A stretch of 64,000 nucleotides of DNA from Euglena gracilis (taxonomy: Eukaryota). The stretch is from NCBI GenBank assembly GCA_039621445.1, contig CP154954.1:19950642-20014641 (forward strand), in the 5' to 3' direction. Both the position numbers and the translations under genes were made by a program. Positions 19,850 through 64,000 of this stretch are shown here, one piece after another. The stretch's first letter is position 1. Every line of letters starts with the position of its first letter. Below the pieces are notes generated by a model. It was not told where the DNA came from and did not search any database. It worked only from the letters and a program-made list of their open reading frames with translations.

Positions 19850-22800
19850 ATGGCGGTGCTGTGCCTGAGGGGCGGGAAGTCTTGCTGGCGCACGAAACTG
19901 AGTGGTCCGGTGGTCCAGTGGTCCTCTCGGCTCGGGTTGACCCAGGCCAATTTCCCTTTTAAGACAGACTCCAATTTTTGGACACCCGGCGCTGGGCGGT
20001 GTGCTATCCCCCCATCAGTCAATCATTTAGTCACTGGCCGACCCCCCCCCCCGGGGGGGGTGGGTGACTGGTTTTTCCAGAGTGACTGACTGGTTTTTGG
20101 TCCGGACCCCCTCCCTCCCCCTGGGGGGGGGGGGGGGGGTCCGGGGGGGGGGGGGGGCAAAAAACCGCCAAAATGACCCGGCGCCGAAGGCACCGGAAAT
20201 TTTTATTTGTCCTTTACATGTTTTGGGTCAAAATTCCCTTTGGATTGCAGAGTGGCCGACCCCCCAGGGGGGGGGGTTGACTGACTGGTTTCACAAAAAA
20301 AAGTGACTGACTGGTTTTTCAAAAGTGGAGTGACCCCCCTCCCCCCGGGGGTCGATAAAAAAGGTATGCCCCCCACCCATCCCCGCCCTTCAGGTCTCAA
20401 CATCGACTGCAGCGCCTGAGGGGTTTCTGTCAGATCCCCACCGTGAGGTTGGAGGGCATCCGTGGCTGCGCCAAACCGGAGGGGCCGAAGCGCTGAGGCG
20501 ACCTGAGGGCAATCCGTTGCCTCAGCCGGATGAGTTTGGACTGCGAAAGGTATTGACTCCACTGAACTGAGCTGCTTTTTTTTTGTGAGCTTGCTGCACA
20601 CCTCGGTTTTCTTTCGGTTCAGTGGTGTATCGTTTAATTGTGCTGGGGTTCAGAGTGTGTCGCATTGCCAGGAGTGGACCAAGTGCTTCGTGCCGGACGC
20701 CCCCGAAGTTGCTTTGGCGGACGTTTCGGAACATCTTCAAAAGCACGTGTATGATGTCCTGGTGGACGTGCGCGATGCGCGGCTACCAGGCTTCTGCTTA
20801 AGGGATTGCAGTACCCCCCCCCCGGGGGGGGGGGCTGGACTGCAGCTAGTCCAAATTTGGCTAGTGAGATTTCTAGCAGACCCCCCCCCCAGGGGGTCTG
20901 CTAGCAGGGCTAGCTGGTGGAATTTTTTTTCCAGTGACCGGCGTGAAGCGCCGGAAATTTTTGGGGGGAATTTTTGGAACAAAATCAACCAAAAACTTAT
21001 TAAAAACCTCATTTCCACCTCGGCGCACAGCACCTGAGGAAAAAAATTTCCAGTTGGGGGGGGGGGACCCCGGACCCCCCCCCTCGGGGGGAGGGGGGTC
21101 TAGCTAGTCCATTTTTTCCAGTGTTTAGCCGATTGGCTAGCCAGTACACCCCCGGGGATCCTTAAGCAAAAGCCTGGCCGCTACCACAATCATCCCTCCA
21201 TCCACAATACCAGGGATTGGCCAAAGTTGTGCAGGTGTGTGTGTGTGTGTGTGCGTGCGTGTGTGTGTGGTGCCAAACCTGGAATCAAAGTCTGATGGAT
21301 CCAATAGCAAGATAAGCCCGACAAATGTATTTGAAATGTTTTTTTTAAAAATATTTTCCTGTCAGAAAAGTTGAACATAAGGTCGCATGTCTTATGAAGA
21401 CAAGCCGAACGTATCTAACTGCTGGTCAAACTTTGTGGGGGGTGGGCTAGTTTCCCGGTTTCGCTGTTTCCGACTCGGCTGCTGATTTCTGTTGCATGCT
21501 GCGGTGGTGTTCATTGGCCCGTGACAACCCCCTCCCTCCCCCTGCCATCGCTGGCCTTCCTCCCAGGCCCACATCGTGTGCTACACCCACGCGGAACGGC
21601 TCCGCCGGGAGGACATCGACCGAGTCGCGGCGTGGACGGAGCACACCCACGGCCCCTCCGCCCAGCAGCCGTCTCTTCTTTCCACCACGGTGCCCGTTGG
21701 CCCCTCGTGGGCTGAGGGCTGGGCCGCCGACTGCTGAATGCGCTGCCGTCTTCTTCCTGAATCTGCGGCGTGTGCGGCGGATGGACCGGAAGCAGCCCTG
21801 GCGACTCCTTTCCCCACCCACATGGTGGACTCGGGCGAGGGGTTGGTGAGAGGTAGGGTGTTGGTTTGTGTAGAATGGGGACATTCTTAATTGCCGGCCA
21901 GGGTTTAGGGCAGGGTAAAGGGGAGGTACGGGGTCAGGGTTTGCGACAGCGTTGGGGTTGGGTGGGACACCAGGCCCCCACCTACTACCGGACCAAGTAT
22001 GGACACGGATGCGCGCCCAACAGCAAGGAACGCCGTCCAGCCGGCAGGCCACGCGTCGCACGTGCCCACGCTCCGCACCGTTTCAACCGATACATCCGGG
22101 ACCCAACTCCGGTGTCCAGCCCTGACAAGGTCCGGCATCACCGCCAACAACAGTCACCGGCCTGCGGGCGCATGGGTGTCGAACGGGGGTCATCCCGGAC
22201 CGCCGGAAACGAGGGAACGCCGTGCCCGGACCCCGAGGGGCCCCCAGCCCCCGGCCAGCGCCGCCCTCCGGCCCCTGCGGCGGGCGGTGGCCGCCGCGTG
22301 CCGGGCCGGCGGGGGCGCCGAGGCGCTGGTGGCGGGCCTCCCCAACGCCGGCAAGAGCAGCCTGCTGCACCCGCTGGCCCGCCGGTTCCTGCAGGCGGCG
22401 TGGAAGCGGAGGTCCGAGGACCACATGCCCCAGGTCAAATCCGGAACTCATGGTGGGGGACCCCCTGGGTGGGGGGACCCCCGATCTCAAGAAAATCCCT
22501 GACATATGTGTATTGCATCAAAGATCACCTCCTCACCCCCCCGTGGGAGGTGGTCCAGCCAGTCATAAGCCATTTTCCACCTTCCCCCATCGAGGTATTT
22601 TAATTTCTTTCCAGTTGCATTTCGGGCAGCTGGATAGTGGCGGGGTTTTTGCTGTGGTGGGTTCCAACGTGGCAACATGCCAAACTTCAGCAAAAGTGCG
22701 TCGAAAATTGCCCAAGCACTTTAAATTTTGGGCCTGAAAATTCATATCTTAAAATTTTGATATTTTTTGGGCTTGTCTGTTGTTTTATTTTTTTTGGCAC

Positions 22801-25800
22801 CCGGTAAGACCCCTGGGGCGGTCAGCCTTGATCCAGCCAGCCCTAATTTTCCAGCCTCTGATCTTCCTTCCCCCCTGCCTGTTTCATTTTTTTTCTCCTC
22901 AGAGCTTGCACCCAAAGCAAATTTGTCTTATTTGGTGCTGCCTTGCAAAAAGAATATAAATGCAATATGGTTGACATGGGCATGTTTTCCTGAAGATGCC
23001 TTTACTCAATATTTCAGACCGATTGGCTGGTCGGTCTGAAATGCCGACCAGTTTTTCTTTGGCTCAATAACCCAGGCGAGGGATTTGGCCAAAATTGTGA
23101 AGTGGCTCCGCACCTGCGCACCAAATTAAATGCGGACATTTCTCTTCGCCTCTTCGACCAATTTTCCCAACGTGGCTGCCAAGCACCTCCAATGGTGCAT
23201 CCCGACAAATCCCGATGAATCCCGACAAATTATGACAGAGCGCGACAACACGTATTTGGCCTCCTTGAGGTGGGGGTTCCATCAAATCCCGACAAAGCCC
23301 AACCAATCCCGACAACAGCGCCAAAATTTGTGACCAGGGATGAAGTTGCCAAGTCAGCATGATTTGGTTGGCTTTCTGTTTTGCACAGTTTTTTTTTTGT
23401 GAAACCACATAAAGAATTTGCATGAAAAAAGCTTCGTCACGCATCAGATATGGCCAGGACCCAGCTCCAACGTGCAGAACACAACAAACCCCGAAAAATC
23501 CCGACAAATCCCGCGGCCAGCACCCAATTATCAGACGGTCTGGAGGTGCGTGGTGGCTGCCTAACCCGGTGGGAGGTGGTGGCCAGGTTGCCTCTGAGGG
23601 AAAAGTTGCTGACTGGTGGGTGGGCGAATGAAAGGAACCCCCCAAGGGTCGGCCAACAGTCAATGATCCCAAACACATTAACTTCAGGTGGTTTTTGGCC
23701 AAACATCGTCCCTTCTGCCGGCGTTAAACCCTGGGATGGGTCAGGGGCCCCGCCGCCCCCGTCACAGGTCGCCTGCAAGCCGGGCACGACCACCTCCGTC
23801 CTGCCCTACCCCATGCCCAGTCCCTGTTTTGCTGTTCCCCCACTCCCAGAGAGCGAAATGGGGGGAAGGGAATTTGTGGTACCGCCCATCCGAAACCACG
23901 CCGTGTTCAGAATCAACAAGGGGGTACATGGGCTTTGGGAGCCCACTTGTTGTTGTTGTTGTTGTTCTTGTTGTTGTTGTTGCAATTGCACAAGTGGTCC
24001 AAAATTAATATATATTTTTGAGGCTTTTTTAGTGGTGATTTGTGAGACAAAAGGAGAATAAGAAGAACAGCGCCCACAAAGTGGAGGCGTTCGTACAGCA
24101 TTCCTGAGCACATATGTACATGTGCATATGCAGCATATGCAGCATGTCTGAGAGGGTCAAAGAAAGTTTGTCAGGGTATTGCACCATGTGCCATAAATTC
24201 AACGTGTACACACATTCACGTAATCTGCAAACCGGTCGTCTGTGTGGTCAGTTTGTGAAATCGCACAAGTAATTCATGTGTTCAAACGGACCACTTGCAC
24301 TATTGTGGGAACGTCTGTTCCCGTAATTACACAAGTGGAATACTCCCGCAGTTGCCCAAGTGGTTGGTTTGCACATTTTGCAACTGCTTTGTGTGTGCAG
24401 TTGCGCACGGAGACCGACTGGGACAATTTTTTTTAAAAAAAGTCAAAGTGCAAGCTCGCCAAGTAGCACACATGGTGCACGTTTGAAAGTTGTGTGTGTC
24501 GAAAGACCGGGGAAAAAAAGCCGGCGTTCCATGGCTTATGCAGTGCATCCAACCAAGTCAGGCGGCCGATCTTGCACTTAAAACGGCATTGGTTTTGCGG
24601 AACTGTGCAAACGGACGGTTTGTGTTTTTTGAAAGTCCCAACAAATGGCGCCTAAACCTGTTAATTTGATCAGGATGTGGTCTGGTGCCCCAGGACGGTA
24701 GAGGGTGGTTCAAAGACTTTGACCTATACGGTATTCATGAGGCAGGTGTCCCAAACAGCATACAGCGCATGGACACCCAGTATGTGTGCTTGGGAAACTC
24801 CCAACGGCTGCCTCATCAACTTGGGGTGTCGTGGGGCAGACGACATCGAGCCTTCCCCAAAAACGTACACTTAGACGCCGGGGAACAACGTTCGCATGGG
24901 CAGTCGGGGCCGAATCGCTCGGGGGCCGGGGGCGGCCCCTCTCCGTCTCCCCGGCAGCAAATGCCGGCCCGCACCGCCGGGCCTGCCCCCCAGCGTGCCG
25001 GCCGCAGTGGCTCTGGGGCATTGACACCCCCGGGCTGGACCCCCCGGCGGCGGCGTTCCACGCGGACCCGGAGCTGGGCTCAGGGGCTTTCTTAAGCTGG
25101 GGGGGTCCTGCCCCCCCCGGGGGGGGGGGTCCAGCCAGCCAGCACGTTTTATCCAGCCAACAACTCCCCCCCCCGTGTTCGCCGAAATGAAGTTGGGGCT
25201 GGGACAAAAAACCACCAAAATTTATTTCGCAAAAAAATTGGGGAAGGGGCCAAAAATGGTTTTTTTTTGAGGGGATTTGGGGCTTTCACCTGATGTTTTT
25301 TTTTTGAAAAGTCCCAACCCAGCTGAAATTGCACTTTTCTTTTTGCCGTTTTTCGGGTGCCAGGCAGGTCCAGCTGCCTGCCACCCCCCCCCCCCAGACC
25401 CCCCACCCCTCCAGAGGGATTCCAACCATCACCTTTTTTCTCTGGCTGCACCTTTTTCCAGCCGGCCCATGCCCCCCCCCCCCCCTGGGGGTCCATAAGA
25501 AAGCCCCTGGCTTGGCTTCAAGCTGTTCCTCACGGGCCACCTGCGCCGGGGCAGGGCCCCGTGTGCGGTGGACGTTGCCGACTACGTGCTGTGGAAGTGC
25601 AATTGGGTGCGTCCCCTGTTGCCTGGCCCTCGGTGGGGGCTGGAATGTCGCGGCAGGTTTTATCCGTTGGAGGCTGGCAGGCGCCGGAGGAGGAGGAAGA
25701 GATCTGTGTGGGTGCGCTCCGGTGCAAAAGCTATGACGTCCAATATGTTCATGTGGGATGAGTAACCCACGTGTGCACGCAAACCAATCACCCCCCACCA

Positions 25801-27948
25801 ATTGAAATTGCGCTTCAATTTTGGATTTTGGTATTCGTTTGGGTTTGCATCATTTTTGGGACTGTGTCTAATGGATGGCCACCTTTGGAAATTGCCATTT
25901 TGTTGTTTTCACAGCAAAATTGCTGGAAAGATCAACAATAAAAACCTATGGGTGTTGTGCTTTGCCCCATTGGGATTTGTCTTTTTTTAATTTAATGGTT
26001 GTCAATCCATGCAAAGTTTGGAAAGGGTCACCGTGTCTTCCAGGGTTCACCCATACGACCAATACAACTACCAGCGATGAGAACCCCAAGCTCCAATGTC
26101 TTTTCCGGGCTTCTGCTTAAGGAAATGGGGGGTTGCTATGGGCAGGCAGGGAGGGGGGGGGGAGGCAGGGGGTTGAAAGTGGGTTGGCAGTGCTATGGCA
26201 CACCCCCCGGTGCTGAAAGGCGCCAGGAGTCCGAAAACGACCATTTTCAAAAGACATGGGTCGGAGGGAATTTTCAAGGCTTGGTTGGCAGGCACCGATG
26301 TCCGAACGCCCCCTCCCCGAGGGGGGTGCTCGCAATGAGCAGGCACCCCATAGCACCCAACCCCCAGGGGGGTTGGTAAACAGAAGCCTGGTCTTTTGTT
26401 ATCTTATAACTCAGCCATTCTCCCTAAGTCAGCTTAATTGTTCCTTCGACATCTGTAATCTGAAGACGATCCCAAGGGTTAATCGAGCTACGATTGCTTT
26501 CTCATTTGCTTGCTCTACTCAGCTTCGCCACCATTTCTATGTTCCAATTTTAAAACTCCGTTCATCCCAGTGCTTGTTGACTCCCACGGTGGATCACTTC
26601 GGGTTTTCCCTCCTCCAATCTCCGTCCACCACCCATTCACTCAGCCATCTGCACGCACAGGGAGAGGCAAGAACGTGCACACACATACAGAAACCCACAT
26701 GCACACACATATACACACAGACACATACATACACACATAATTGCATACACACAACAACACATATGCAGACGCGTGCATCCACACAGACATGCATACACAA
26801 TCACACACATATGCAGACACATACACACACACATACATATATACACACATACCGACACACACATACATGCATTCACACATGCACACATACAGGCACATGC
26901 ATACACATATACACACAGGCACGCACATGCATAAACACACATACAGACACAAACATCCACACAGGTGCGCACAGACACAAGGCTTTTCATCTTGGCATTT
27001 TTCTTTTTTGTTGCATCCATGCATCCAATGCATTTCGGAAGCGGGGGGTTGCTGCCAGGGGCCGACGGATGACATCCAGCTGATCCTGCGGCAGTTTATG
27101 GGAGAGGCCGACCACGGTGTGGCCTGGCACCCCATGCAGCCACTGCTCCAATTTCCCTCCCTCCCAAGATTGTGGAAAACATTTTTTTACAGTTTTATAA
27201 AATTTTCATGGAATGCAACCAGTGTGCATCACATACTGCACATGTCACATGATGTTCACTTGCTGTGTTTGCTGGCACATCGGTGTCTACACAGCTCCAC
27301 ATGCATGTGCATTGCACACATGCGTTGATGGGACCCTTTTGGCCCTCTCTCACCATGCCCGGGCACCGGCTCCCTCCCTGCCGCCCGCAGGCGACCCGCG
27401 GGCGGCGGCCCGGGCGGCGGAGTGCTTCCTCGGGTTGGCCGCAGAGCACGGCTTCGACCGCCTCGTGCTGGACCCATTGCCGCTGCCCGCCGGAGCCCCC
27501 AGCCAGGCTTTTTTTTTTAACTCGGAAGACCCCCCGAGGGAGGTCCCACGCCCCCACAGCGTATGTCCTACGTCCAGGGTATGTCCCTACAGCGCTGGAA
27601 TTACCCCAGAGTTGCTCACCGGGCGAGGGGGAGCCACACACGAGCACTGGTGTCAGGGGTCCCTGGCCACTCACCACACAAATTGGGCCAGAAGCGAAGA
27701 AGTTAGTGCCGGCCATAAACCGACAAGAAGCCTTGGTGCAACTGAGGGGGTACTGGGTGGGGGGGGGGAACCCTCCGGGGACCTTAAATAGGAAGCCTGC
27801 TCCCGGCACCTTGACGCGGCCGCTCCACTTCCCGGGGGAGGGGCCGATCATTGCCACCAATTTCCGGCCGGAGAGTTTCCGTGGGCCTCGGCTAAGGGTG
27901 GTCGCCCCCCCCCCTCTTTTGGTTTCCCTGCTGTTTGAGCAACGCTGA
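19850..27948 (+). CDS. RbgA/YlqF/MTG1-family circularly permuted GTPase, paralog 1; exons ~19850-19935, 20394-20549, 20654-20783, 21182-21234, 21567-21659, 21742-~21790, ~22248-22433, 23768-~23819, ~24992-25077, 25515-25606, 27059-27116, 27391-27500, 27805-27948 (a short exon may be missing near 26 kb)
   Basis: Motifs in family order: DVLVDVRDARLP, G4 position THAE, G1 VAGLPNAGKSS, G2 KPGTT, G3 IDTPG, ELGFKL, VADYVLW, AAECFL..GFDRLVLD; basic N-terminus MAVLCLRGGKSCWRTKL (first exon tentative). Confidence 0.85.
20787..21176 (+). mobile_element. MITE forming an entire predicted nonconventional intron (20784-21181)
   Basis: TIR CAGGCTT(C/T)TGCTTAAGG; TSD GCGGCTAC/GCCGCTAC; removal restores DARLPQSSLHP. 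Confidence 0.9.
21660..21741 (+). other. 82-nt nonconventional intron
   Basis: tcc|gccCAGCAGCCG...CGACTGCTGaatgc|gct; removal eliminates an in-frame TGA and gives HGPSAAVFFLN. Confidence 0.8.
25081..25509 (+). mobile_element. MITE forming an entire predicted nonconventional intron (25078-25514)
   Basis: TIR CAGGGGCTTTCTTA; TSD GCTGGGCT/GCTTGGCT; removal restores DPELGFKLFLTGHL. Confidence 0.9.
26106..26390. mobile_element. MITE inside a conventional intron
   Basis: cgggcttctgcttaa...taaacagaagcctg; TSD GTCTTTTC/GTCTTTTG. Confidence 0.75.
27504..27799 (+). mobile_element. Older MITE forming a predicted nonconventional intron (27501-27804)
   Basis: CAGGCTT...AAGCCTG; TSD CCCCCAGC/CTCCCGGC; removal switches to the frame homologous to the paralog 2 C-terminus. 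Confidence 0.8.
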
Positions 27949-30364
27949 GACATCCATTTGCCCAGGTTCAAAACGGTTTGAAAGGCAGGGCGGAGACGCA
28001 AAAAAGGATGTATCTGTTAATGTTTTCATCGAGTCAAGAAAGATGAACAGGGGACACAGAGGCAGCACCAGGTTGTTGATCTCGAGTTGGCGTGCCACGC
28101 GCTCGGGTGTGGCCATGGGTGACCCAGCGGGTGTCCAGGGGGTGTACATGAAATGTCCCTTGGACATTTCATGTACCTCACCCCACAGTCAGCCTCCAGT
28201 CCCAAGGCCTCTCTCAGCCCATTGGGTTGTGATCGTGTGTGTGCACACTGGCACTTCCCCACCCATGTAGCAATGCCCCAGCTAGCTCTACCGCAAAAAA
28301 ATTGAAGCCAGTCCTGTGAGAGTGCACTTTGTGACAATAAGCTTTATCTGGCTCCTTTCATATCATAAGGGATCAATCAGGCAAGAGATTTTCTTTTGTT
28401 CTCAAGGATTGGCCTCTTTTTGCACAGCACGTTGCAGCAGAGCAGGGGGTAGGGCAGGGGCATTCAGGGGAGGGGAACGCAAATGCGTTTGTATTTTTTG
28501 ATTTTGGCAAAAATTGCGTGTTTTTTTTTGGCGCTTTTTTTTTGCATTTTTCCCCGCGATTTTCGGATTTTTGTTGGAAAATTTTTGACCATGAAAAATT
28601 CCTTATTTTGTCCCCGATTTTCCCCGAGACCTAAAATTTTGTCAAATTTTTTTGTCATTTATGCTTTCTGGGGCAAAAAAAATGCTTATGCTAAGTCCTT
28701 TCTTTTTTATTTTTAAGTCCTTTTTTATTTTGTTTTTATTTTTATGCTAACTCCTCTCCAGTGGAAAAGTGTACATCCTGGGGGAGCTCCTAAAGGATTT
28801 TACATGCAATTTTTTGTGTTTTTTTTTTGCTTTCTTTTGTGTTTATTTGCGGTTTTTTTGCGGCGCGGTTTTTTTTTTTGAGGGTCCACGTTGTGCCCCC
28901 CCCCCCCCTTGGGGCATTGCTGCGTAGGGTGGGGCTGCGCCAGTGTTCACACACCATCACCTCTACCAATGGGCTGGCAGAGAGTATAAGGTTGCTGATG
29001 ACTCAAATCCCTTGATGTCAATACTAAAGGTCGTTTATTGCAATGCAGAAGTTTAAAATGGGCCACTGCATTCGGAGGGTCAAGATTCTGTGCCGAATAA
29101 TGTCCACCTTTGCCAGCAGGCATCGACGTCGGATTTGCCTGTGTCGGAGTCCGGAACATCCCATGCGGGGGAGCCATTCTTTGCTTCAAGGTCCACACCC
29201 TTGGAATGGCTTGATTATTGTCTGGCATCATAACAGCTTCGCCTACGACCCATCGTTTGGTCCCTCCAGATTGTTGTTGCTTTTATGGATTCGTCTCACC
29301 CGTGTGAAGTGTTGAGGAATGACCCCCAAATCACCACTCTTTTTGCAACCAACCTGGCAGGGCATTCGCCTTGTACAAGGATACGCACCGTTCCACCCCG
29401 CACGCGTGCAGACCAGCGCTGCCCCCCCCCCCCCGCCGCCCGCTGAAGCCATCCCCCACAAGCAACCCCCCTGTTGTCACACAGGGCGGCCGGAGAAGAG
29501 TGGAGCTCCTGGGTCCAGGGCTTGGCTTCGCCCACAGCGCAGCTTCCGGTGCATCTTCTGATCTTTCCTGCCCTCAAAATTTAAACTCCTGGGGTTTATA
29601 GTCGTGCGTGGTTTGAAGACCCTCGAAAAGGGCATTACATCAGGAAGGTCCATTTCTTTCAGGTGGCCTCAACGAACTTTTTCTGCCTCCGCTGCAGTCA
29701 AATTCCACCACCATTCCAATTTTCTTCTGTGTACCCTCAATTCTTCCCAACCACATGTTACCTCGGGCCAACATTGACCGTTTCATGTTATCCAAAATCC
29801 AGTGTCTTTTCAGAAAATTCTCCTTGAAGAGGGTCTGTAAAAAAAAAATGCAAGGGTAACAAAAATCAAACCTGTCGGTTTAACTTTAGGGGGAGGGGTT
29901 ATGTTGACCCACCTGGCTGGCAGGAAGAAATGGAGTCAGAACGGGCGTTGGGGTAAGAAACACCATCTCCTTCTTGCTTTCTTTAAAAGTGAACCAGCGG
30001 TGCTACGCTGAGGTGTGCGTGCATACATACGTGTGTGTGTTTGTTTGTGTGGGTGGGTGGGTGGGTGGGTGGATGTGTGCATTAGCGTGAGCTGCATCCT
30101 TCCTTGGGGGTTAAAACCAGAGCCCTGTGCGAGGTTTCTGGTCTGAACCTGAAGATGACGATGCCTCGCTGGGGACTCCTCACGTGGCTGGTCTGTTCTT
30201 ATTCCGAACGCAAATTGTGGCTTCTTTGCAACCTTTATCAAGTCGGCCACGGTTACGAGACTATCCAAAAGTGGAAGTGCTTTCGACTTTCTGGCCCACT
30301 GTGATCAACCCCGGCTCCACCAGTCAGCCCACTGCATGGACCGCCACCTCATATTCAATTTTGC

Positions 30365-30686
<322 letters not shown>

Positions 30687-30720
30687 TTGATTGGTTGTTG
30701 TGATTGATAGGGTTGACAGG

Positions 30721-31569
30721 ATGGAGGGACATTGCTGCAGGGTTCCCTGCTGAGGAGGCTCTGGGCACTGAAGTGCAGGCGTGGTACAACCGGCTGCCGG
30801 CAGGGTCTGCCGCCACGGACAACGTGCCGGCTGGCGAAGCGGTTGGCGGCGCCGCAGCCAATCCACCCGATGCCCAGCGACCGGATGAGGCCCTGTGGAC
30901 TGAATCAATCTGCAATCCCCGCCCTTTTCTGGAAGTCGGAGACTGGTTGCAACCAGGGTTCAGTATAAGGAGGGTTTACAGGGTTCAGGAGGAGGGGGAT
31001 GCCCCCCATCCCCCCCCCTGACCCTCCCTCCACCTGCCCTTATATTGAACCCTGGGTTGCAGATCAGGAGAGTGAGAACTGTTAGGGACCGGTGCTGAAT
31101 CTGAACTCCGGCGTTATTTTTCTCCAAGATTGCTTTCTCCTTCTTTGTGCAATTTTTTTTAATTTTTTCAACTCAATTTAAAAACGGCCATGGTCGTGGT
31201 TGGGGGCAGAGGTTTTTTAAGTTTTGTGCAGGCAGTGCTTCCGGGCACTGCCTCGCCCCGGCCCTGTTGTCCAGCAGCAACGCCGCCCCGACTGCGCCAG
31301 CCCCCACCCAGAAGGTGCCTGCCCGTGTGCCCCGGAGCACGCCTCTCCAGCTCCCCCAGCCCATCCATTTGCGTCACGGCTGCTCAACACAGACTTGGCA
31401 ACAGTTTCCTCCAGTCCGGTGCTGCTTTCCCCTCCCGGGCAGGCAGGGGACTCGCGTCCCTCGTTCAGGACCGCCCTGGCAGCCCGGCGTTCCACGCCCC
31501 CGTGACCCCGAGGACCTCTGGCTTGGTCCGCAGTTTCCAAAGCGACGGTCCCTGGACCGTACGAGTTGA
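30721..31569 (+). other. Possible exons of an unresolved gene (copy at ~61002-61857)
   Basis: GC-rich, follows acceptor-like ttgacag; two indels between copies are +6 and -3 nt, but another is +1. Confidence 0.25.
30954..31054. mobile_element. 101-bp miniature member of the 1130-1574 MITE family (another at 19583-19820)
   Basis: cagggttcagtataagg...ccttatattgaaccctg; flanks share ggttgca. Confidence 0.7.
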
Positions 31570-31732
31570 GCCCCCGCTGCAGTATGATGGGGGCTGGGGG
31601 GTTTTGTTTTTTTTTGTTTCCTGCAGCTGTTCTTACAACGATCATTTTTTCCTGGGGAGGGGAAAGAGTGCCGAATGCCATGTCGGATTCACATTTGAAC
31701 GCACAGGCAATTGCCCATTCCCTGATGCATGG

Positions 31733-31859
<127 letters not shown>

Positions 31860-32118
31860 CGCGCGCGCGCATTCGTGCCAGTGTGTCTCTCTTGGCATGG
31901 TTGAAAGTTCGATTGTGCAGAAATACACACACATACATATACATATAACATGCATGCACATATGTTTATACATTATATACATATATGTATGTGTATAATC
32001 GAACCTTCAACCATGCAATTATATATATATTCAACTCTACATGTAATTCAATTATATATTTTATTGCAGGCGCATTTTTCACACCTCGGGTTGGGTTGGA
32101 ATTTCCTTCAGCTGAATA

Positions 32119-33190
32119 ATGGGATGCCCCAGACCCCCACGTGACACCGCGCTTGAGAATGCACTGCGTGTGTTGCGCACTGTCCCGTTCGCTGTTGTCT
32201 TGGAGGTGCGGGACGCTCGCATCCCACGGTCAACACACAGGGAGCCCTGGCACCCCATTTTTAAATCAATTTTGAGCTTGACGAGGGCAGGACCACAAGA
32301 GCTGCGCTCCTGCAATGTGCGGGGGAGTGTATGCTTTGTTTTCGGCCCGAGGCCATGGGATCAGAAGAGCAAAACCCCCTCTCAATATAAAGCTCCCCCA
32401 ATATATACACCCTCCATATATAAGTCCCCCCCCCGATATGCAAGCAGATGATGGTGCCATTCAGGAAAAATTGCAGAATTTGGGGTGTATTCCACATTTT
32501 TTTCCTCCAGAAATGCTCCCTTCTGGATAAAATTGCACATTTTTGGTGAAAATAGGAGGTGCACAACGAAAATTTGGCATAAAGTTGGTATTTGACTGCA
32601 GTTGAAGGCCGCCAATGTTTTTATCATCCACCCAGAAAGTTTGATTCCCCTCCCCCCCAATTATGTTGCCCTCCCCAGAGGGTATTGAAATCGGTTCACA
32701 TGGGGCTTGTTAATTGCGACGATAAAGCAGGGAGCATCCGAACGGGGGGGGGGGCATCCAATTGAATCACCCGGACCACGGCTGTACGGAATCCCCAAAC
32801 CCCTGTGGATGGTGGGTGGCCTTTCCACTTTTCCGGGGGGTGCCAATTTTTAGCCCAGAATTTTCCGTCGGCGCCACCGGGCAGTGCAGTGCTGTGATGG
32901 GGGGTCGCCCCCCCCCCCACCTCCCGGCTGGGGAGGTCGACCACCCTCCCGCCCGGCCATCCAGTGCCGCCCTGCCCCCCCCCCCATTTCTTTCAGTCGT
33001 GTGGCAGTGGGGGGGGGGGGGCTGCTGGCCCCGGCCTGTCCCCCTGCGGCCGGCCCACCCGCTGATCGGCAAGGTGGCCCGCCAGGCGGCGGTCCACTTC
33101 GTGGTCTTCACCCATGCGGACCTCCTGCCCCCCGCGGAGCTGCAGCGCGTCACCCGCTGGGCACTGCAGGAGGCCCGTGAACCGGACCCA

Positions 33191-33260
<70 letters not shown>

Positions 33261-33628
33261 TATCACAGCAAGACCAGGAGGAGAGAGCTTCAAACACAGA
33301 AAAATCAGGATCATCCCCTCTGTCTTGCCAGGCACAACAGAAAATTATCAAAATTGGTCGATAAATTCGACTTTGAATAACAACTCAGCAAGCATGACCA
33401 GATGAAACACAAAAAATTGGAATGTTGGCTGGAGGCTTGAATAACATCAGAAACATACCCTCTCTGTGTCTTTTTTTAGAAAAACCAGGCTGCTCAGGTG
33501 CAGATGCACAAATTCAAACACAAGCTGCGGGGGAAAATGTGCTGGACGCACTATGGCCACCCACCCACCCACCCACCCACCCACCCACCCACGCGTACGC
33601 GTGCACACACACATCCACACACACACAT

Positions 33629-33676
<48 letters not shown>

Positions 33677-33690
33677 CACACCCACACCCA

Positions 33691-33753
<63 letters not shown>

Positions 33754-36700
33754 GCACACACCCACACACACACACTGAGCTGAGATTTGCAAATCTACTT
33801 TTCTTCCACTCGGGTTTTCTGTTATCAGCCTGTTGTTGCATTAATTATTCTTATTCTCTCGAATCACTGGGCAAGCCATCGCTTGCTTGTGCAATCCTAG
33901 GACCCACGTCCACCCGGGTATGAAGAGGATATCAAATGTAATGTACGGAATGCGAATAGAGCATGAGGAGTCATGTTCACCGTTGTAAGACAAAAGCGGC
34001 GGATGTACTGTGGTGGGGAAGGTCTGGGGAATGGAAATGCAGGCCCGGGTACTGGGGAGCAGCGCTGCAGCAACCAAACCGCATAAATCCACCTGATACA
34101 ACAGAAACAGAGTGCGCCGGATCAAAATTATGTCGCCAGACTCCCAAACAGCAGATCACACAAGAGTGAAACGGAGGACCAATCTGATATGATATAATAG
34201 ATTTGGAAGATTGAAATAGACAAAAAAGGGGGAGATGGAACAATGCATGAGAATCAATGGCAACTGATAGAAAATTTTGTGTGGAAAGTCTAATAAATTT
34301 GACAATGTAACTTTGCGGGTGGAGTTACCTTAGGCCCTGGTGTTCGGCCCTGGGTGCATAAATGAGTGGGTGGGTAGGTGGGTGTGTGGGTGAGGGTGTG
34401 AGGGTGTGGGTGTGGGTGGCTGGGTGGGTGTGTGTGGGTGTGGGGGTGGGGGTGGGCGGGTGTGTGTGTGTGTGGGTGTGGGTGGGGGTGTGGGTGTGGG
34501 GGTGGGTGTGGGTGTGGGTGTGGGTTGTGGGTGTGGGGTGGGTGTGGGTGTGGGTGTGGGTGTGGTGGTGTGTGTGTGGGGTGTGGGTGGTGTGTGTGTG
34601 GGTGTGGGTGTGTGAGTGGGTGTGGGTGTGGGTGTGGGTGTGTGTGTGTGTGGTGGGTGTGTGGGTGCATGTGTGGGTGGGTGGGTGGGTGGGTGGGTGT
34701 CTCTGCACCAGCCCCAGAACATGCCACCAGTGGGTTGTCCTCCCCTCCGTCCCCCTTCAGCGGCAGCACGCCACCTCCGTGTGGTTCGTCAACACAAAGG
34801 ACGCCCTCACCCTGCCTCAGCGGGAGACGCAGCGCGCCTTCGGCCGCCTGTACGAGGCGCTGGTGGAGGCGTGCCGGCCGGGCCCCCATCGCTGCGATGG
34901 AACCGAAGCCGTTCACGGCGGCAACCTTTGCCTGGCAGCCCACTGCTTTGTGGTGATCCCCCATGGGCTGACTGTTTGGTTTGGTGTTGGCTTTTCGGGC
35001 TGGCTGATTTTTTTTGGAGTGACTGATTTGGTTCCGGACCCCGCCCCCCCCCCCCCCCCGAGAGGGTCGAAGGAGTGGCAGAAGGTGATACACCAGGTGT
35101 TGAAGGCGCCAGAGGTGTTTTTTGGGGGGGGAAATGGTCAAATCAATTAATTTTAGGATGGATTGGCTGCCCCCCCCCCAAGTAGGGAGGTCGGACGTGA
35201 GTGAGTGGTTTTCAAGTGAAGGGACTTTTCCTCTGGGTCGGTGAGTAGGTGAGGGCCCTGTGCCGATCGCCTTTTCAGTCATTTCGGGTTGGGACAGCGA
35301 GTTTTCCAGAAAACACGTTGGAAGAAATCAAGCCAATCATCGCCAATAGATGTATAAAAAAAAACTGATGTCTGAGCAGAGAGGGAAAGGAGGAACCATC
35401 AGAGAGGGGGGGGGTGCACGCGGCGAGGGGAGGGTAAGGGCCTTGGAGGAGTGACACCTGGTGCCCACTGTGTCGAGACAGGAGGAAGTGGTCCCGTGGT
35501 CCCAATTGAATTGCCAACCATCTCTCTTAAAAAAAAAATGACCAAAACTTGCACCAAATGCGCCATAAAAAAGGAGGATTTTTTTTGAGGGGCTAAAAAG
35601 GCCATTGTTTGGCCTCAATTTTTTTATCTGTCTTGGGGAGGGGTCATTAGGGGGGAGGCCTTTAAAAATTGTCATCTGCACAGGGGGGGAGGGGTGGTCC
35701 CCAAAGAAACACCAACTGTACTACCAACGCTCCCCTGGGCATACTGTGTCAACTCCCCTGAGAAGCTGTGTCAAAAAAATAGAAAAAAATAAAAGAAAAA
35801 GAAAATTGAAGGAAAAAACATCGAACCAATAAAGAATTAAGAGAAATTATCAAAATGGTGACGACCTGCTTTCAGAAAGCAACTTTGTGGTGGGGCTCAG
35901 AGGTCCCGGAAAAAAACAGCCCATTTGGGGCATTTTTTTGACCCACGGCCAGACAGGTGGGAGGGGGGGCTGCCCGGTCAGACATTCCAGGGCACTCCAC
36001 CCCCTCCACCTCCCCCCCCCCCCGGGTTGGTCAAATTCAGCCGGATGGGGGCCCCGGAGCGGCGCACGGCGACCGGGATGGTGCTGGTGGCCGGCACGCC
36101 CAACGTCGGGAAGAGCAGCCTCGTGGCGATGCTGACGAAGGAGCTGACCGCCAAGCGGCGCAAGAAGGTCCGCCGGGCCCTCTCTCGGTTGGGGGGGGGG
36201 GGGCGGCCTCGACTGCCCCCCCCCAGAGCTGTTTGGGAATCCCCGAAACCCTATGGGTGGCGGGTGGTGGGTGGTGAGGGAGTCAACCCCCCCCACCAGG
36301 CCCCACCAGGCCGCATCGCCCTGCCCGCCCCAACTGAACGGCCGCCGGTAGTGGGGTGGAGGCGGCAGAGCGGACGACTGCACTCAACCCCGTGCACGTT
36401 TGGCACTCAAACCGGGTGTTGTGGAGCCAAGTATTCCGCCGACACGGGATATTTGGCTCCACAGAAACCCGAGTTTGGGGCTGTGGGCTAAGTGTCAATG
36501 GAATTTCACCGGAATTGAAAAGTGGTCATTCACTGACGGAATATATGTTGACTTAAAAGAAGAATGAAGGAGCTGTGCAGCTTCCCACTGTATGTTCTTT
36601 TTTTGTTCTCTGGCTTTTCAAGCTTGTGCTTTGACAATCACATTTTGCAATTTCTGTGTGTACGGTGAATTTTAGATTTTCGCCCATTTTGCATGTGTTA

Positions 36701-39700
36701 AATTTGGCATTTGTGAGACAGTTTTTTTGCTCGTTGTCAAAAATCGCCTTTTACTTTTGACCCTTCCGCAGGAAGGCTTTTTTTCGGTTCAATTTTTCAG
36801 CAAAATAATAATGGAGACCCCAAAATATGACCCTTGGGATTTTAGCAACTTACCCCAAAAGGATATTTGGGTCTTATTTATTTAGGGGGACTGCGTGACA
36901 CATGCTATTTTCCCATTTCCCAATCACGTTAGAACACAGAAGATCCCGAACATTTCGGGGCATGCCCGCAGTCATTGGCCTTCCATGCCAGCCTCCGCCC
37001 CCGCCTTCAATCGGCCCGCCCCTGCGCAGGGGAAGCACCACGTGCCGCGGATCGTCAACGCAGCAGGCACCACCCAGGGCAACACGAAGCACTGCTTCAT
37101 GGAGGACCCACTGCTGTACATGGTGGACACCCCCGGCCAGGACGGCGGGGGGGGAGGGGGGCGGGTTGGGGGCCAGGCAGGAATTAGGTGAGCGTTGGCT
37201 TTGTACAAGGGGCGGGGGGGGTCCAACCGCCCCCCCAGGGGGGGGGGGGGTGCGGACCATCCCTCTCTCCAGCAGGCAGGGGGGGGGGGTGGGATGGGGA
37301 ACCCCATAGAACCAAAATATCTTTTTCTCAGCGTTTTGCACCCCAAAACTTGTGTTTTTTATCACCCAATCTCCCCCGCCCTGCAGCCGGCCTCATGCTG
37401 CCACAGGAGGTGTTCCACACCAATGCGGAGCTGTACTTTATGTTGCGGATGATGAACAACTGCCCGGAGTTCCCCGGGCACGACCCTTATGTATGGCGCT
37501 GCCTGCGATGGCTCCTGAACTGGTCAGCTTGAGCATCAGGGCCAAGGTTTTTTTCAGCCTTTTCGCCTTTGACTCTTTAGAGAGGACCCCAACCATACCG
37601 ATGGTTCCTACCTGTTCCTCCGACCTGTTCCTGATTCCTGATTTTATTAATTTTTCACTCTCGAAAAAAGATGTCTATTTTGTTGCCTGGTGAATTTTTT
37701 TATGAAAAAAAACTCAACGATGTTTTACAAAGAGTTCAATCTCAATTGGACTCAAGAGTTTTCTTTGGCTACAGTATTTTAAACTCCATTTCCAGAAATG
37801 TTGGGCTAAAATGTGACATCTCAAAACAGCATGTTCTGAACAGATTAACCGTTTGATCTCTGGAACCCTTAAAATGGAATTCGGCTTGGAAATTCATTTT
37901 GTGCATTTTTTTTTGCTTTTCTGCGGCTTCGTGCCAAGGATTGGGATGGCAGAGTGGACCTGCAACGGCCCCCAAAACGGGCGCCTCGAACCCCCACTCC
38001 CAGATCAGTGGATACCACCAAACCGAAGGTTCTCATGTCCAGCCGGGGTAACGTTTGCACCTGCGGAATGCGCCTTCTTTCAACGCTCCACCTGATCATT
38101 CCCCTTAACTTGTCCATCCAGCCAGCCGTTTTTTTCTTTGGAACAATCTCCCGTCCGTCGCGCCTCCGCTATGCCGGCACACGCACGTCACACACGGCAC
38201 ACGCACGTCACACACGTCACACGCACGTCACACACGGCACACGCCGGCACACGCACGTCACAGGTGTTCTGCGAGTACCTCATCTGGAAGTGCCGGCGCC
38301 TCCGCTTCACGGCTTGGCTGGCCGACCTCCGCCTGCCGGACACCGCCACGGACGTCAACCTCATCCTGGACCGCCTGGACCCGGACCCCGTCCCCGAGAG
38401 GCGGCCAGGGCTGCAGCTGGAACTGGGCAGCAAAGGGTTGGTTGCTGTGGTGGGGTGGTGGGAACCACAATGTGAGTTAAGAATCTGCACCACACAATGT
38501 GGGGCATCCGACACACAGCCTGACACCCATTATGCCCACCGGGGTTGTAGGATCCTGTTTGGTACTCCCTGGGGCTTCTAAATGTTTGCAAAAAGATTTT
38601 TACTGTTTAAAGAAAAACGAGATAGTGTCGAAAATTTTGAGCTTTTTCAAAAAAAATTTGATGGTGTGTAAGCCATATGCACCTATTTTTCAGCACCAGA
38701 TATGAAATTAGTGTGTTTGCCCTGCTGTTTTATTCCCACTGGATATTCTAAATTGAGTTTCAGTGATTGGGGAAACGAAGGGGGGACCTGAAGATTAGAT
38801 GGGAAGATTTATTATGAAAAAGTTCTGCACAAAATATCTGCCAGATTTTTCCTGCCATGTTAAGGATACATCCAGAATTTCCCTGCTTTTTTTTGCAAAA
38901 AAAAACACGCTTTGTGCCAACTTTTGATATTTGGTATTCCACTCTTCTTATTCACAAGTCTCTTGATTTTTTATTTGTGAAAAGGCAAATTTTTTGTATT
39001 GCATTGTTTTGCTTGCTTTTTTTGCAAAATTTAGGTTTGTTTTCGAAATTCTGGAGGGAAAAAAACTTGTTATCACATGTTTCAAGGATTTCCATGAGGA
39101 TTCAAACGATATTTTCCTGAATGAAGATTCAGAAAATTGCAAAAAAAAATGTCAAGGTCATTTAACATTTGGTGGTTTCTCAGATGCATGATTAATTTTT
39201 TTATTTATCTTGGTGTTTGCGCTGAAAAATAATACCAGACTCCTGACCCCGTTTCCAGTAGCCCAGTGCAATGCAAAAAAGAAACACATAGCAAACAGCA
39301 GAAAACAATTAACATTTTTGCTCTTTAAACATGGGTAAGTTTTGTTGTGCTTTTTGGGGGTTATTTCATTTGTTGTTTTCCCTGTATTTTGGACCCATTT
39401 CGCATTTTGGAAGCTCTTTCCCCTCGAAGTTTGCGTTTGTTTCAATTCGACATTGTGCAGCTTTCGTTCATTCCGAGCAAATTTTCCCATGTTTTTTTTG
39501 GAGAATGTATCAAAGATGGCATTGCATTTTGTTTGTTATTTGTTCGAATATTGTCATCAAAACATTGATATTTGAACCACGGGGATAGGTTTGGCCGTCC
39601 GGGGCACACAATCACTTAGTCACTGGCCTACCCCCCTCCCCAGTGGAGTTATCATAACAGTCTGTCATACTGTCATAACTGTCATAATTGTTATGTGGCC

Positions 39701-40398
39701 AGACTAGAGGGGTTTCTGGTATCTCTGCGGTTGCCCTTTCAAAAGGGGGAAGAGTCTCTCAGCCCAGCCCTGGGACGGAGCAACCACCGCCCGCCGCTTC
39801 CATGAAATGCTGCTGGGGAAGGGCCTGGCCGGGCTCGTGTGCGACGACCTGCCTGCCCTTCCCTCCGAGGCCAGCTCCGCTCTGGCGCCGTACGAAGGGA
39901 TACTCATGTGCAAAGTGCACTTCAAACAGACAGTTGTTTTGCCCTTCATGTGTGTGTGTGTGTGTGCCAGCAGGCAGGTGAGTCTGTGCTCACCCAACTC
40001 ACCTTCCTGCACGCACATGCACACGCGCACGCACAGGCATGCACACGCACGCCTGCACAGGCATGCACATGTAGAGAAATTTTCAATCTTCTTTCTTTAA
40101 AATCAAATTGTCTTTCATCCATCGTCTTTCCATTAAAACAGCTGCGCTTCAATCAGGGCGGTTAGCCCCTCAGAATGATCACAAATGAGTCACGGGGAGG
40201 GGGGGTTGGTTGCTGGTCGGGGGCATTCCCCGCCCTTCCCCCTGCTTTACCGCCGGCCCCAGCCCCGCCGCCCCGCTGCCCGTCTTCCCCGACCGGCTCG
40301 TCCTCGCCACCGACTACGAGCCGGGCCACTTCCGCGCCATCCAGGCCGTGGACCTGCCGCAGCCCACCGGGAAGGTGCCGAAGAAGCTGCAGCGCTGA
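32119..40398 (+). CDS. RbgA/YlqF/MTG1-family circularly permuted GTPase, paralog 2; exons 32119-32234, 33052-~33172, 34761-~34880, ~36044-36167, 37030-37134, 37389-37490, 38264-38402, 39778-39889, 40263-40398
   Basis: [18 protein letters not shown]4 position THAD, G1 [12 protein letters not shown]2 AAGTT, G3 [33 protein letters not shown]; colinear with paralog 1 to the C-terminus. Confidence 0.88.
38176..38262 (+). repeat. Minisatellite (ggcacacgcacgtcacacac variants) ending at a splice acceptor
   Basis: Direct reading. Confidence 0.8.
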
Positions 40399-41113
40399 CG
40401 GGACTGTGACAGTTCCGCGGGTGTTCGATGCAACCACGCGGTCTGTGTGTCGGTTTGCGTGGCGCACGGGGTGGAAGGACCCCAGCCTGACTTCGCATCG
40501 ACGGTGTTCGAGCTGCTGGGTTGCGGAACTCAGGGTTGCAAGAACCACAGGCACCATCCAACTGCTCCGCCTTTTCCTCGTGGAAGTGACCGGTTGTTGT
40601 TCATTCCCAACATGTTGGGGAAGCGGGAGTCAGAATTCCTGAACTGAGCCAAGGTGATCCTGATCAGGGAACTGATTGGCTGGTAAGCACAATGAAGAAG
40701 AAAGTGGATACCCCAACCCAACAGTCATCATGTAATGGCCTCTGTGATTTTTCCATTGTGCTGACGTGAGGAGAAGCCCACATTTGTGTATTTTCATTCC
40801 CAAGTCATTTGATAAAGCTGGGTTTAGGAGAGAGCTTGGATCCAAGGTGTATGATGGGAAATGCTATTGTTTACACTCATCTGATGCTGTCCGTATGTTT
40901 GTTTGGGGAAACAGAAGAATGGTTTTTTGGCTCACGGGCAATCCACCCATCCATAATAAAAACCCTAATGTCACACTGTGCCCCATACATCATTGGGCCG
41001 CCGAGAAACCTGTTTCTTGCTGGAGCGCACCACCCCAACCCCATCAAACCCACCGACCCGATAAAAATCCCCACCCACCCATCTCCTTCCGCAGTTCCCG
41101 CTCTCCTTACGTA

Positions 41114-43609
41114 ATGGTGTCCAGTGAGGCAATGTCTCCCCACGAGCTGGCGACCCTGTTGGACCTGGTCAAGGCGAAACGGTCCGCCCCAGCCAGCCAT
41201 GGAGGGGTTGGGGCGGTCTCGGGAGACCCCGGCCGGTGCGCGCGCGCATGTGCGCGTGCACGCGCGACACATTCTGGTTTAGAGTTGTGGCGCATGTGCC
41301 CGGGGGCTTCGGTCCGCATTTGCGTTGCATGCGTCGGCGTTGGTGTGTTGGCGTGGAGGTTGCGCTCGACTTGACTTGAAACGGGGGTGGATTGTTTCAA
41401 AGCAGACAGTCGTCCCACGTAGATGTTGGGAGGGGGGTCCGGACACCCCACTTCCCCTCCTCGGCTGGTTCCAAAAATAGCAAAAGGTTTTCTTCCGGTG
41501 CACAGCGCTGGAAAATGAGCAAACAACGCTCATTTTTGAGCATATTGCCCATTTTTTGAATGTTTTGGTGTTTCCCCCGTAGAATATGTGCAAAAAAATT
41601 CAAGAAATCAGCACTTTTGGAATCATTTTCAAAAAAAAGCGATCAGGGATTTTTGGCCAATTTTGGCTTGGTTTCCGGGCCTTTGCCGGTCCATAAAACC
41701 AAAAATTTTCCCGGTCCCCTTCAGTTTCGAGGGGGGAGTCCGACCCCCCCCCACTACCTCCTTGTTGAGAGGGGGGTCCGGACCCCCCCCCAGTGCACAT
41801 TTTGGCGACGACTGCTCGAACATCCCTCACTGCCCCCCTCCCCCCACGCCCAACCCTGGGGCCAGTCTGACGGCGGAGGAGGCGACCCAGCACTGGCTGG
41901 ACATGGCGGTGGAGGAGGTGAACACGCAGGCCCTCGCCGCGGAGGCCAGGCTGAATTTTGAGACGAGGCTGACCCTGAGGCGGGGGGGGGGGGGCTGCCT
42001 GCGTGTAATGGACTTACACCAGAGTTGCTCACCTGGCCCAAAATCAGCAACACAAGAGCACGGGTGTAAGGGGTCCCTGGCCACGCACCACACAAACTGG
42101 GCCAGAAGCGAAGTTAGTGCCGGCCATAAACAGACAAGAACCCTTAGTGCAACCAAGGGGGGGGGTGCCTGCGTGCCTGGGTATGCCAAGTCACCCAATC
42201 GACCCCCCTTGAGGGCAGGGGGGGGGGGGTTGGGCACATTCCAGCGCCAAAGGCACTGGAAGCCCAGAAATGGTCTGTTTCGGGCACCTTTTTCCGGCCC
42301 ACGCCCAGGCAGACACAACCCCCTGGGGGGGGGGTGCCTGCCTGCCTGCCTGCCCAGGCCCTCCCCCCCCCCCGGTTGGCCAAATCCAGCCTGTCGGAGG
42401 CGGAGGTGGAGAGGCTGCGGAAGGAGCTCGCAGCGACAGCAACAAAATGGGGCCGATGTGGCGGCCAACCTGAGTGTGAGGCGGCACCAACCCCACAGGG
42501 GGGGGGGGGGGGCTGCCTCGGCGTGGGCCGGAAGTAGCCCAAAAAATGGATTTTTCCCGAGTTCAAGGCACTTGTGGCCATGTGCCCAACCCGAGGTGCT
42601 ATTGAGTTCCTGCCCCCCCCCCCAGTTTGGAGTTTGGGTGGGCTCCAGGGCACTCCGAGACCCCCCTCCAGGTGGCAGTGTTGGTCGGAGCCCCCCTCTT
42701 GTGTGGGAAGCATTCTGTTGACTGAAAGAGGTGTATATATTTGGTTTGAGCTTCCATTTTCTGCAAGTGCATATTTTTTGTTCTCAACCACGTTGGATTG
42801 GAAAGCAATGAAACAGATAAATTCTCGAGACGTGCTGTTCCATCAATGGGCTGAAACTGTGGGAGTGTGCAATGTAAATCAGCTTCCCGTTTGATCATTT
42901 TGTCATCTCAGACCCTTCACCGAAATGTGAGAGGAAATCACACAATACTAACACACAGTATTGAAAGGAAGTTGGTGTGAGCGTTCCTGGGTTGCTGTCT
43001 TTTCTTCGCATTTTTTTGTGTTTTTTTCTCAATTAGTTTTTGTCATTGCGTAGACAACGCCTTGGTCACAGACTCATCGCATCACATCATCACACCTCTG
43101 CCGGGGGGCTTTTATGGGACGAAGCCAGCTGCGCATCGCAGCAACGACAAAAGAGGGAGGGACCGGGAATGGATCGCCTACCTTGTTGCCCTGAACGAGG
43201 TCCAAGGCACTCCATACCTCTGATTGGCTGACCCTCGGCCAAGGCAGCGGCTTCCATCGTTTTTGCCTATTTTTGTTTCGCTTGACAAAAGCGCCTTTCT
43301 CTTCAGCACATCCCCACTCGATAAGATAAATTGCAACGCAGTCTTGAAGCAAAACAGGCCGGATACCCATTTTCTTTCAATCCAATCAATGAAGATTCCG
43401 GATCAGCTTGCGATTGCTCTTGTAACAAACCAACGGTTTGCATTTGATGGGTGGGTTTATGTCTGGCCAGGACAGCCGCCAGGCCGGAAACGAGGAGCTC
43501 CTTGCCAGATGACATGACACAGCATGTGGAGCGGCGGCGCACCGAAATTCTGGAGTTGGAGAAGGAGGTTGCGGAACTGGAAGCGAATATCAACCATCCT
43601 GTCGCTTGA
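41114..43609 (+). CDS. Small hypothetical coiled-coil protein; exons 41114-41181, 41866-41943, 42399-~42435, ~43510-43609
   Basis: MVSSEAMSPHELATLLDLVKAKR-LTAEEATQHWLDMAVEEVNTQALAAE-AEVERLRKELA..DMTQHVERRRTEILELEKEVAELEANINHPVA*; last junction unresolved. Confidence 0.55.
41947..42393 (+). mobile_element. MITE forming an entire predicted nonconventional intron (41944-42398)
   Basis: TIR CAGGCTG(A/G)ATTT; TSD GCGGAGGC/TCGGAGGC; removal gives QALAAEAEVERLRKEL. Confidence 0.85.
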
Positions 43610-50499: not shown

Positions 50500-50738
50500 C
50501 TTTCATTGAATTCCGTTGAACACGTGTTTGATTTTTGAATGTCTTTATCTTCAGTATTGACCGCACTCGTAGCGTTGAAATTCTTTCTCCTTGAGGTCGA
50601 AGGGCAGAAATAGTAATCAGCCAACTCCGGCAACAAAAAGCAGTAAGAAGCACCCCCGCGCACGCACAAACACAGAACAGAACAGCCGGCAAGGAAAGCA
50701 GGACCTCACCATCTCGCAGTGCGGAGCCCGAATGGTCT

Positions 50739-58380: not shown

Positions 58381-64000
<5,620 letters not shown>

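Follow-up and report, generated by a model that had tools for sequence, protein, structure and literature searches.

Host genes and interrupting elements

The window analysed in this study is a stretch of 64,000 nucleotides from the genome of Euglena gracilis (assembly GCA_039621445.1, contig CP154954.1, positions 19,950,642 to 20,014,641 of the forward strand), to which all coordinates below refer. It contains two paralogous GTPase genes and further coding sequence that are interrupted at five places by inverted-repeat elements, termed e1 to e5, which are examined here as probable nonconventional introns of transposon origin. Gene 1 (20633–25700, plus strand) encodes a YlqF/MTG1-like circularly permuted GTPase and includes a DARLP exon, a G1 exon at about 22254–22436 and a DTPG exon at about 24990–25077. 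Gene 2 (32143–37529, plus strand) is a distant paralogue of gene 1. Single exons of the two genes matched NCBIfam TIGR03596 weakly, at profile positions 24–46 and 120–145 with E values of 0.0014–0.063, which is far below the whole-protein cut-off. A search of protein representatives with the G1 exon of gene 1 returned one repetitive junk match only, and searches for homologous proteins found nothing, whether made with the exon that follows e2 or with the one that follows e5. In addition, ARAGORN placed one tRNA-Gly call inside the G1 exon, which is implausible.

The elements e1 and e2 are found in gene 1. The first is a MITE (miniature inverted-repeat transposable element) of 390 bp at 20787–21176 within the DARLP motif, with flanks at 20779–20786 and 21177–21184. 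The second is a MITE of 429 bp at 25081–25509, with flanks at 25073–25080 and 25510–25517. The element e3, a MITE of 447 bp at 41947–42393, lies in a coding exon of coiled-coil-like character (gene 3) between flanks at 41939–41946 and 42394–42401. The two flanks are identical at seven of eight positions in each of these three cases, and at six of eight positions in the remaining two, which are e4, an element of 296 bp at 27504–27799 in a coding-like exon that lies downstream of gene 1, and e5, a G-rich inverted-repeat element of 246 bp at 37138–37383 in gene 2, at the G3 motif DTPG. No strand is assigned to any of the five. If an intron begins 3 nt upstream of CAG and ends 5 nt downstream of CTG (the 3+5 rule), the predicted introns are 20784–21181 (e1), 25078–25514 (e2), 41944–42398 (e3), 27501–27804 (e4) and 37135–37388 (e5).

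Each of the five begins with CAG and has CTG at its end. They also follow a common terminus plan, seen in every element of this study, in which CAGG is followed by a T-rich stretch, usually by TTAAG(G), and then by G/C homopolymer palindromes. The terminal inverted repeats (TIRs) span about 16–19 bp. Their quality is good in e1 and e2, of which the latter matched at 12 of 12 positions, and moderate in e3 and e4; those of e5 are weak and rich in G.

After the element and 8 nt were taken out, the reading frame stayed open in all five cases. Gene 2 is uninterrupted at the sites of e1, where it reads VRDARIP, and of e2, and gene 1 runs unbroken as DTPGL across the site of e5. At these three sites, the alignments between the paralogues were gap-free over the joints once the element and 8 nt had been removed. 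The DARxP motif is split by e1 and the G3 motif DTPG by e5, and e2 is found 24 residues past G3; the exons around e3 and e4 contain no recognisable motif and display only a codon-position bias in GC content. Moreover, the Arg of DARLP at e1 and the Pro of DTPG at e5 are retained only if positions 1–3 of the target site duplication (TSD), which is the duplicated flank, come from the left copy. Splits that remove at least 6 nt on the left are thus excluded, and the 3+5 split fits without being pinned. The flank copies of e4 differ at TSD position 6, where the 3+5 split would take positions 1–5 from the left copy and 6–8 from the right one and give a Gly codon, the alternative being a Ser codon. 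No in-frame GT-AG pair that would give the same product was found within 25 nt of the junctions of e1 to e5, although for e3 alone one GC-AG position exists within the slidable range and gives the same mRNA. Given that e1 to e5 have no GT-AG sites, a spliceosomal introner was rejected.

A preliminary description of this window, made from the sequence alone, had reported the five elements at the coordinates and with the flank identities given above, and these proved exact. Its proposals that removal of the element plus 8 nt restores the frame and that no GT-AG pair is needed agree with the open frames and with the lack of equivalent in-frame GT-AG pairs. It had also counted conserved GTPase motifs in four cases, which was too many: a motif is interrupted at e1 and e5 and is close by at e2, and none is recognisable at e3 and e4.

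Families of related elements

Six similar elements were found elsewhere in the window, again without an assigned strand. Two of them lie in a non-coding context with perfect TSDs (8/8): n1 at 1130–1574 (445 bp), the TIR of which matched at 12 of 12 positions, and n2 at 10826–11100 (275 bp). The element n3 (12368–12617, 250 bp, TSD 7/8) belongs to the family of n2, with 194 of 221 positions identical (88%). The element n4 (19583–19820, 238 bp, flanks 5/8) is a decayed member of the n1 family and 75% identical to n1. A further member of that family is n6 (30954–31054, 101 bp), the duplication of which is in a 9-nt register (7/9). Finally, n5 (7306–7728, 423 bp) is a copy of the e1 family in non-coding sequence. 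It aligned with e1 over the full length, with 288 of 362 columns identical (80%), in the opposite orientation and with its own TSD (7/8), which is unrelated to that of e1.

Similarly, e3 and e4 lie in different genes and were identical at 201 of 249 columns. They have in common the 5' end and a core of 155 bp (27596–27750 and 42009–42161), which is 85% identical and better kept than the rest of both elements. No match to Rfam was found, the core included. Thus, four families are represented at several loci, namely e1/n5, e3/e4, n2/n3 and n1/n4/n6. Such a pattern, in which one family occupies several loci and has a separate 8-mer at each of them, is the hallmark of transposition. Moreover, the elements are short (101–447 bp) and non-coding and combine TIRs with a TSD of fixed length, as MITEs do. 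Hence, e1 to e5 and their siblings are real MITE families and not structures confined to introns. The flanks of n1, n2, n3, n5 and n6 have a GC content of 0.39–0.50, contain stops in most frames and lack codon periodicity; those of e1 to e5 have a GC content at third codon positions (GC3) of 0.61–0.90, well above that at second positions.

The window also contains a segmentally duplicated region of about 5.2 kb (28004–33259 and 58381–63629, 92–96% identity, 30.4 kb apart), which includes the first exons of gene 2 and n6, so that a second copy of n6 is found at 61240–61340. Comparison of the two copies of this duplication revealed no difference in the presence or absence of a MITE, and no empty site was found within the window. 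A scan of metagenomes for the 17-nt terminus of n1 returned 23 loci. Each was a single match that lacked both an inverted partner and a euglenid-like composition, and all were dismissed as chance matches.

Length and significance of the flank duplication

CAG...CTG pairs were also picked by their TIRs alone (TIR match of at least 10/12, low complexity removed). Of the 143 pairs so obtained, six had a flank identity of at least 7/8, for which random 8-mers give an expectation of 0.12. In the same scan with eight shifted registers, no pair reached 7/8, except two at a shift of −1. The TIRs of the six clean pairs matched at 10–12 of 12 positions. When any terminal trinucleotide was allowed, the same six CAG pairs were recovered at a flank length (k) of 8, and the other matches fell in a palindromic tandem array and in low-complexity sequence.

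The mean flank identity over 11 elements was 0.81 at k = 8 and 0.20–0.39 at k = 3–7 and 9–12, a peak to be read with the selection in mind, as e1 to e5 and n1 to n3 had been chosen by the identity of their 8-mer flanks. For the elements found independently of their flanks, the matches were 7/8 (n5), 5/8 (n4) and 3/8 (n6, which matched at 7/9 at k = 9). With six of 143 pairs against 0.12 expected and a peak only at k = 8, a chance origin was rejected for the element set as a whole.

Two other repeats of the window are of note here. The palindromic repeat cluster at 13543–14495 was the source of many spurious TIR/TSD pairs in the scans. At 35256–35685, a stretch of 430 bp had an inverted repeat that matched at 11 of 12 positions and did not start with CAG, with G-rich flanks of 7/8; it may be another type of MITE or a chance pairing.

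Fit to the nonconventional splicing code

The consensus of nonconventional introns in euglenids comprises CA at +4 and +5 and TG at −7 and −6 (PMC3935182). In knock-ins of E. gracilis, the spacer was 3 bp before CAG, which was strict, and 5 bp after CTG, with some tolerance; the exon on the acceptor side preferably, though not absolutely, begins with a purine, and designed artificial introns that followed these rules were spliced correctly (PMC12501133). Statements on this and the other papers on euglenid introns cited here are based on the available parts of their text.

In the predicted introns, all five elements have CAG at +4 to +6 and CTG at −8 to −6 with spacers of 3 and 5 nt, and the spacers are made up of positions 6–8 of the left flank copy and positions 1–5 of the right one. 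In minimum free energy folds, 14–20 of the first 24 nt of e1 to e5 were paired with the last 30 nt. CAG was paired with CUG in e1, e2 and e5, and A5 and G6 were paired in e3 and e4.

The introns of the knock-in study lacked repeats (PMC12501133), and the direct repeat is thus dispensable for splicing and is best regarded as a historical trace. The share of nonconventional introns reported as 'slidable' is 69.1% (PMC12501133), which is the outcome that decaying TSDs would produce. An origin from TSDs would therefore explain why most nonconventional introns are slidable.

Origin of the interrupting elements

Taken together, e1 to e5 are probably MITEs with CAG...CTG termini, TIRs and an 8-bp TSD that inserted into exons, and it is most likely that they are spliced out by the nonconventional pathway. 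The following mechanism may be proposed from their sequence. Non-autonomous DNA transposons with CAG...CTG termini would insert into coding exons and duplicate 8 bp each time. The ends of the element would supply the cis-code, in which CAG and CTG are base-paired and the cuts fall 3 nt ahead of CAG and 5 nt past CTG. Given that the element ends are identical to the nonconventional cis-code, the element would most likely be removed from the pre-mRNA by a pathway that does not use GT-AG borders. As insertion adds the element and 8 nt and splicing would remove the element and 3 plus 5 nt, the message would return to its state before the insertion. The TIRs are symmetric, and removal should therefore work in either orientation.

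Several observations weigh against this reading. A flank match of 6/8 is at background (15 in register and 5–15 in shifted registers among 1452 loosely chosen pairs), so that the matches of e4 and e5 are not significant alone; the case for these two is carried by TIR and family similarity, folding, reading frame and codon periodicity. The element e5 has the weakest TIR and the weakest TSD of the five. Textbook MITEs are AT-rich, whereas the interiors of the elements, examined by codon phase, contain 55–68% GC. Under the 3+5 rule, the downstream exon would begin with G in four of five cases but with T, which is not the preferred purine, in e1. Finally, the best paralogue-guided join of the first two exons of gene 2 is a candidate CAG...CTG intron (e6, 32235–33051, plus strand) that follows the 3+5 rule and is placed by homology, and its flanks match at just one of eight positions. 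If e6 is real, the TSD is not universal among nonconventional introns, or it decays.

Why the spacers are 3 and 5 nt long may tentatively be explained in the same way: they would be fixed because their sum equals the 8-bp TSD of one group of CAG...CTG transposon families. If so, every exonic insertion in either orientation would be erased from the mRNA at once, the splicing machinery would read the transposon's own TIR, and most of the nonconventional introns of Euglena (roughly 70%), the slidable majority included, would be decayed copies of MITEs. Between 2014 and 2025, euglenid nonconventional introns were described as being of mysterious or unclear origin, and the MITE idea rested only on inverted repeats and short direct repeats. 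The window adds direct genomic evidence, as intronic and non-genic copies belong to the same families and have their own 8-bp TSDs. The spacer sum also turns the MITE hypothesis into a simple genome-wide test, in which flank identity should peak at exactly 8 nt, and the 8-bp TSD reduces the candidates for the transposase to superfamilies with TSDs of this length.

For the superfamily, hAT is the best guess and a plausible one, though unproven. The stated hAT signature is a TSD of 8 bp with short TIRs of 10–25 bp (PMC3942097). The TSDs and TIRs of e1 to e5 and of the non-coding copies have these lengths. Moreover, the terminus CAGGG presumably fits the terminal motif of hAT elements. Counting against hAT, C occupies the fifth position of the TIR in e1, e3 and e4, 8-bp TSDs are made by other superfamilies as well, and a Pfam scan of 28 open reading frames in the window detected no transposase domain, hAT included, but only reverse transcriptase, RNase H and tyrosine recombinase, which come from a DIRS-like retroelement. 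Some hAT elements prefer the target nTnnnnAn, which was not seen in the seven clean TSDs (T at position 2 in none of them, A at position 7 in four). It is accordingly quite possible, if somewhat short of an even chance, that e1 to e5 are MITE-derived nonconventional introns mobilised by a transposase other than hAT, whether P-like, Merlin-like, MULE-like or of an undescribed superfamily with 8-bp TSDs. The Merlin families of E. gracilis do have 8-bp TSDs, but Merlin elements in general have TIRs of at least 24 bp with a conserved terminal 5'-GG and TSDs of 8–9 bp (PMC8101967). The elements of this study begin with CA and end with TG within an inverted repeat, so that only the TSD length fits, and Merlin itself was rejected.

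It is improbable that the elements are unspliced MITEs in decaying gene copies, in which the open frames after removal would merely reflect recent insertion. The window is rich in repeats, with a segmental duplication and a retroelement, and weak tblastx evidence suggests that gene 1 may shift frame relative to gene 2 near 25612–25648. However, every element carries the published code that is sufficient for nonconventional splicing, and such elements are present in each of two distant paralogues. Although the TSDs and TIRs have already acquired one or two mismatches, the reading frames, the DARLP and DTPG sequences and the G1 motif are preserved, and the GC3 bias is strong. It is very improbable that the direct repeats were left by double-strand-break repair (filler DNA plus microhomology) instead of transposition. 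The eight-nucleotide direct repeat of a newly gained gapC intron of E. agilis has been read that way (PMC4770533), and 84.4% of the introns of E. agilis, counting also the conventional ones, are flanked by short repeats (PMC12501133). However, break repair predicts neither TIRs nor families, and the repeats described here have a fixed length of 8, adjoin conserved CAG/CTG termini and, for the same families elsewhere, consist of other 8-mers, among them perfect TSDs in non-coding DNA.

Relation to known systems

An MITE-like origin of euglenid nonconventional introns was put forward in 2014 (PMC3935182) and restated in 2016, 2024 and 2025 (PMC4770533, PMC11282704, PMC12501133), and the 2024 review also mentions TSD-like repeats at intron junctions (PMC11282704). 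In the available text of these papers, figures and supplements excepted, no statement was found that 3 plus 5 equals 8 and hence the TSD, nor a rule for TSD length or a superfamily, and literature searches turned up no such statement either; the terms 'hAT', 'superfamily' and '8 bp' are absent from the text of the 2024 review. The novelty lies in linking the length of the TSD explicitly to that of the spacers, together with direct family evidence; the phenomenon itself is of a kind already known. The interpretation given in the preliminary description is supported in part. Among its proposals, the MITE-like nature of the elements is upheld by their TIRs, exact 8-bp TSDs and family members with different TSDs elsewhere, also in non-coding DNA. 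Its point that the 3 and 5 nt spacers add up to one TSD is arithmetically sound, and the spacers have been set experimentally in Euglena (PMC12501133). Its hAT origin is plausible from the lengths of the TSD and TIRs but unproven, as no transposase domain was detected in the 28 open reading frames scanned and other superfamilies have the same TSD length. The novelty is smaller than it had supposed, since the MITE origin, the TSD-like repeats and an 8-nt repeat are in print, and the explicit arithmetic and the superfamily were not found there.

Similar to the published nonconventional introns of euglenids (Milanowski 2014, 2016; PMC12501133), the elements have CAG at +4 to +6 and CTG at −8 to −6 paired together with the flanking TIR. 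They also lack GT-AG borders, occupy paralogue-specific positions and are joined to the exons by direct repeats, which render the borders slidable. Different from them, the elements of this study can be assigned to families of MITEs that also have members outside genes, and their TSD measures exactly 8 bp; in the available text of the published work, the origin is 'unclear', slidable introns are left out of the motif analysis and no TSD length or superfamily is given.

The elements also resemble the introners of Micromonas, Aureococcus and dinoflagellates, in which an exonic non-autonomous transposon with TIRs and a TSD is removed as an intron and the TSD contributes to seamless removal (PMC11282704). 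Introners, however, use spliceosomal GT/GC-AG sites that derive partly from the element and partly from a TSD of 3–5 nt (PMC11282704), in place of the CAG:CUG helix and the 8-bp TSD found here. The introns of Fritillaria borealis are likewise derived from MITEs, with TIRs, TSDs, non-GT-AG borders and species-specific positions, but an adapted U2 spliceosome removes these AG-AC and AG-AT introns (PMC11282704), whereas the nonconventional introns of euglenids are reportedly released as full-length circles.

With hAT elements and hAT MITEs, the elements have in common the TSD length of 8 bp, the shortness of the TIRs and a terminus of the CAG type. Unlike hAT, they show no target-site preference, are GC-rich and have G/C homopolymer palindromes beside the TIR, and neither a transposase nor an autonomous partner was seen in the window. 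Maize Ds is said to have created a new intron. The Merlin elements of E. gracilis are also euglenid DNA transposons with 8-bp TSDs, with 5'-GG TIRs of at least 24 bp as opposed to the CAG ends and TIRs of about 16–19 bp described here (PMC8101967).

Other features of the window

The minus strand carries a DIRS-like retroelement at 45613–55934. It contains a reverse transcriptase (E value of 1.3e-13), a weak RNase H and a weak tyrosine recombinase of the phage-integrase type, and is followed by tandem repeats of about 1.9 kb (50738–54039 compared with 52630–55934, 98.7% identity). In addition, long (GT)n microsatellites are found at 21233–21260, 30375–30545, 31734–31851 and 33194–33259. Two of these tracts start exactly at putative conventional GT donors, which follow exons ending at 21232 and 33193.

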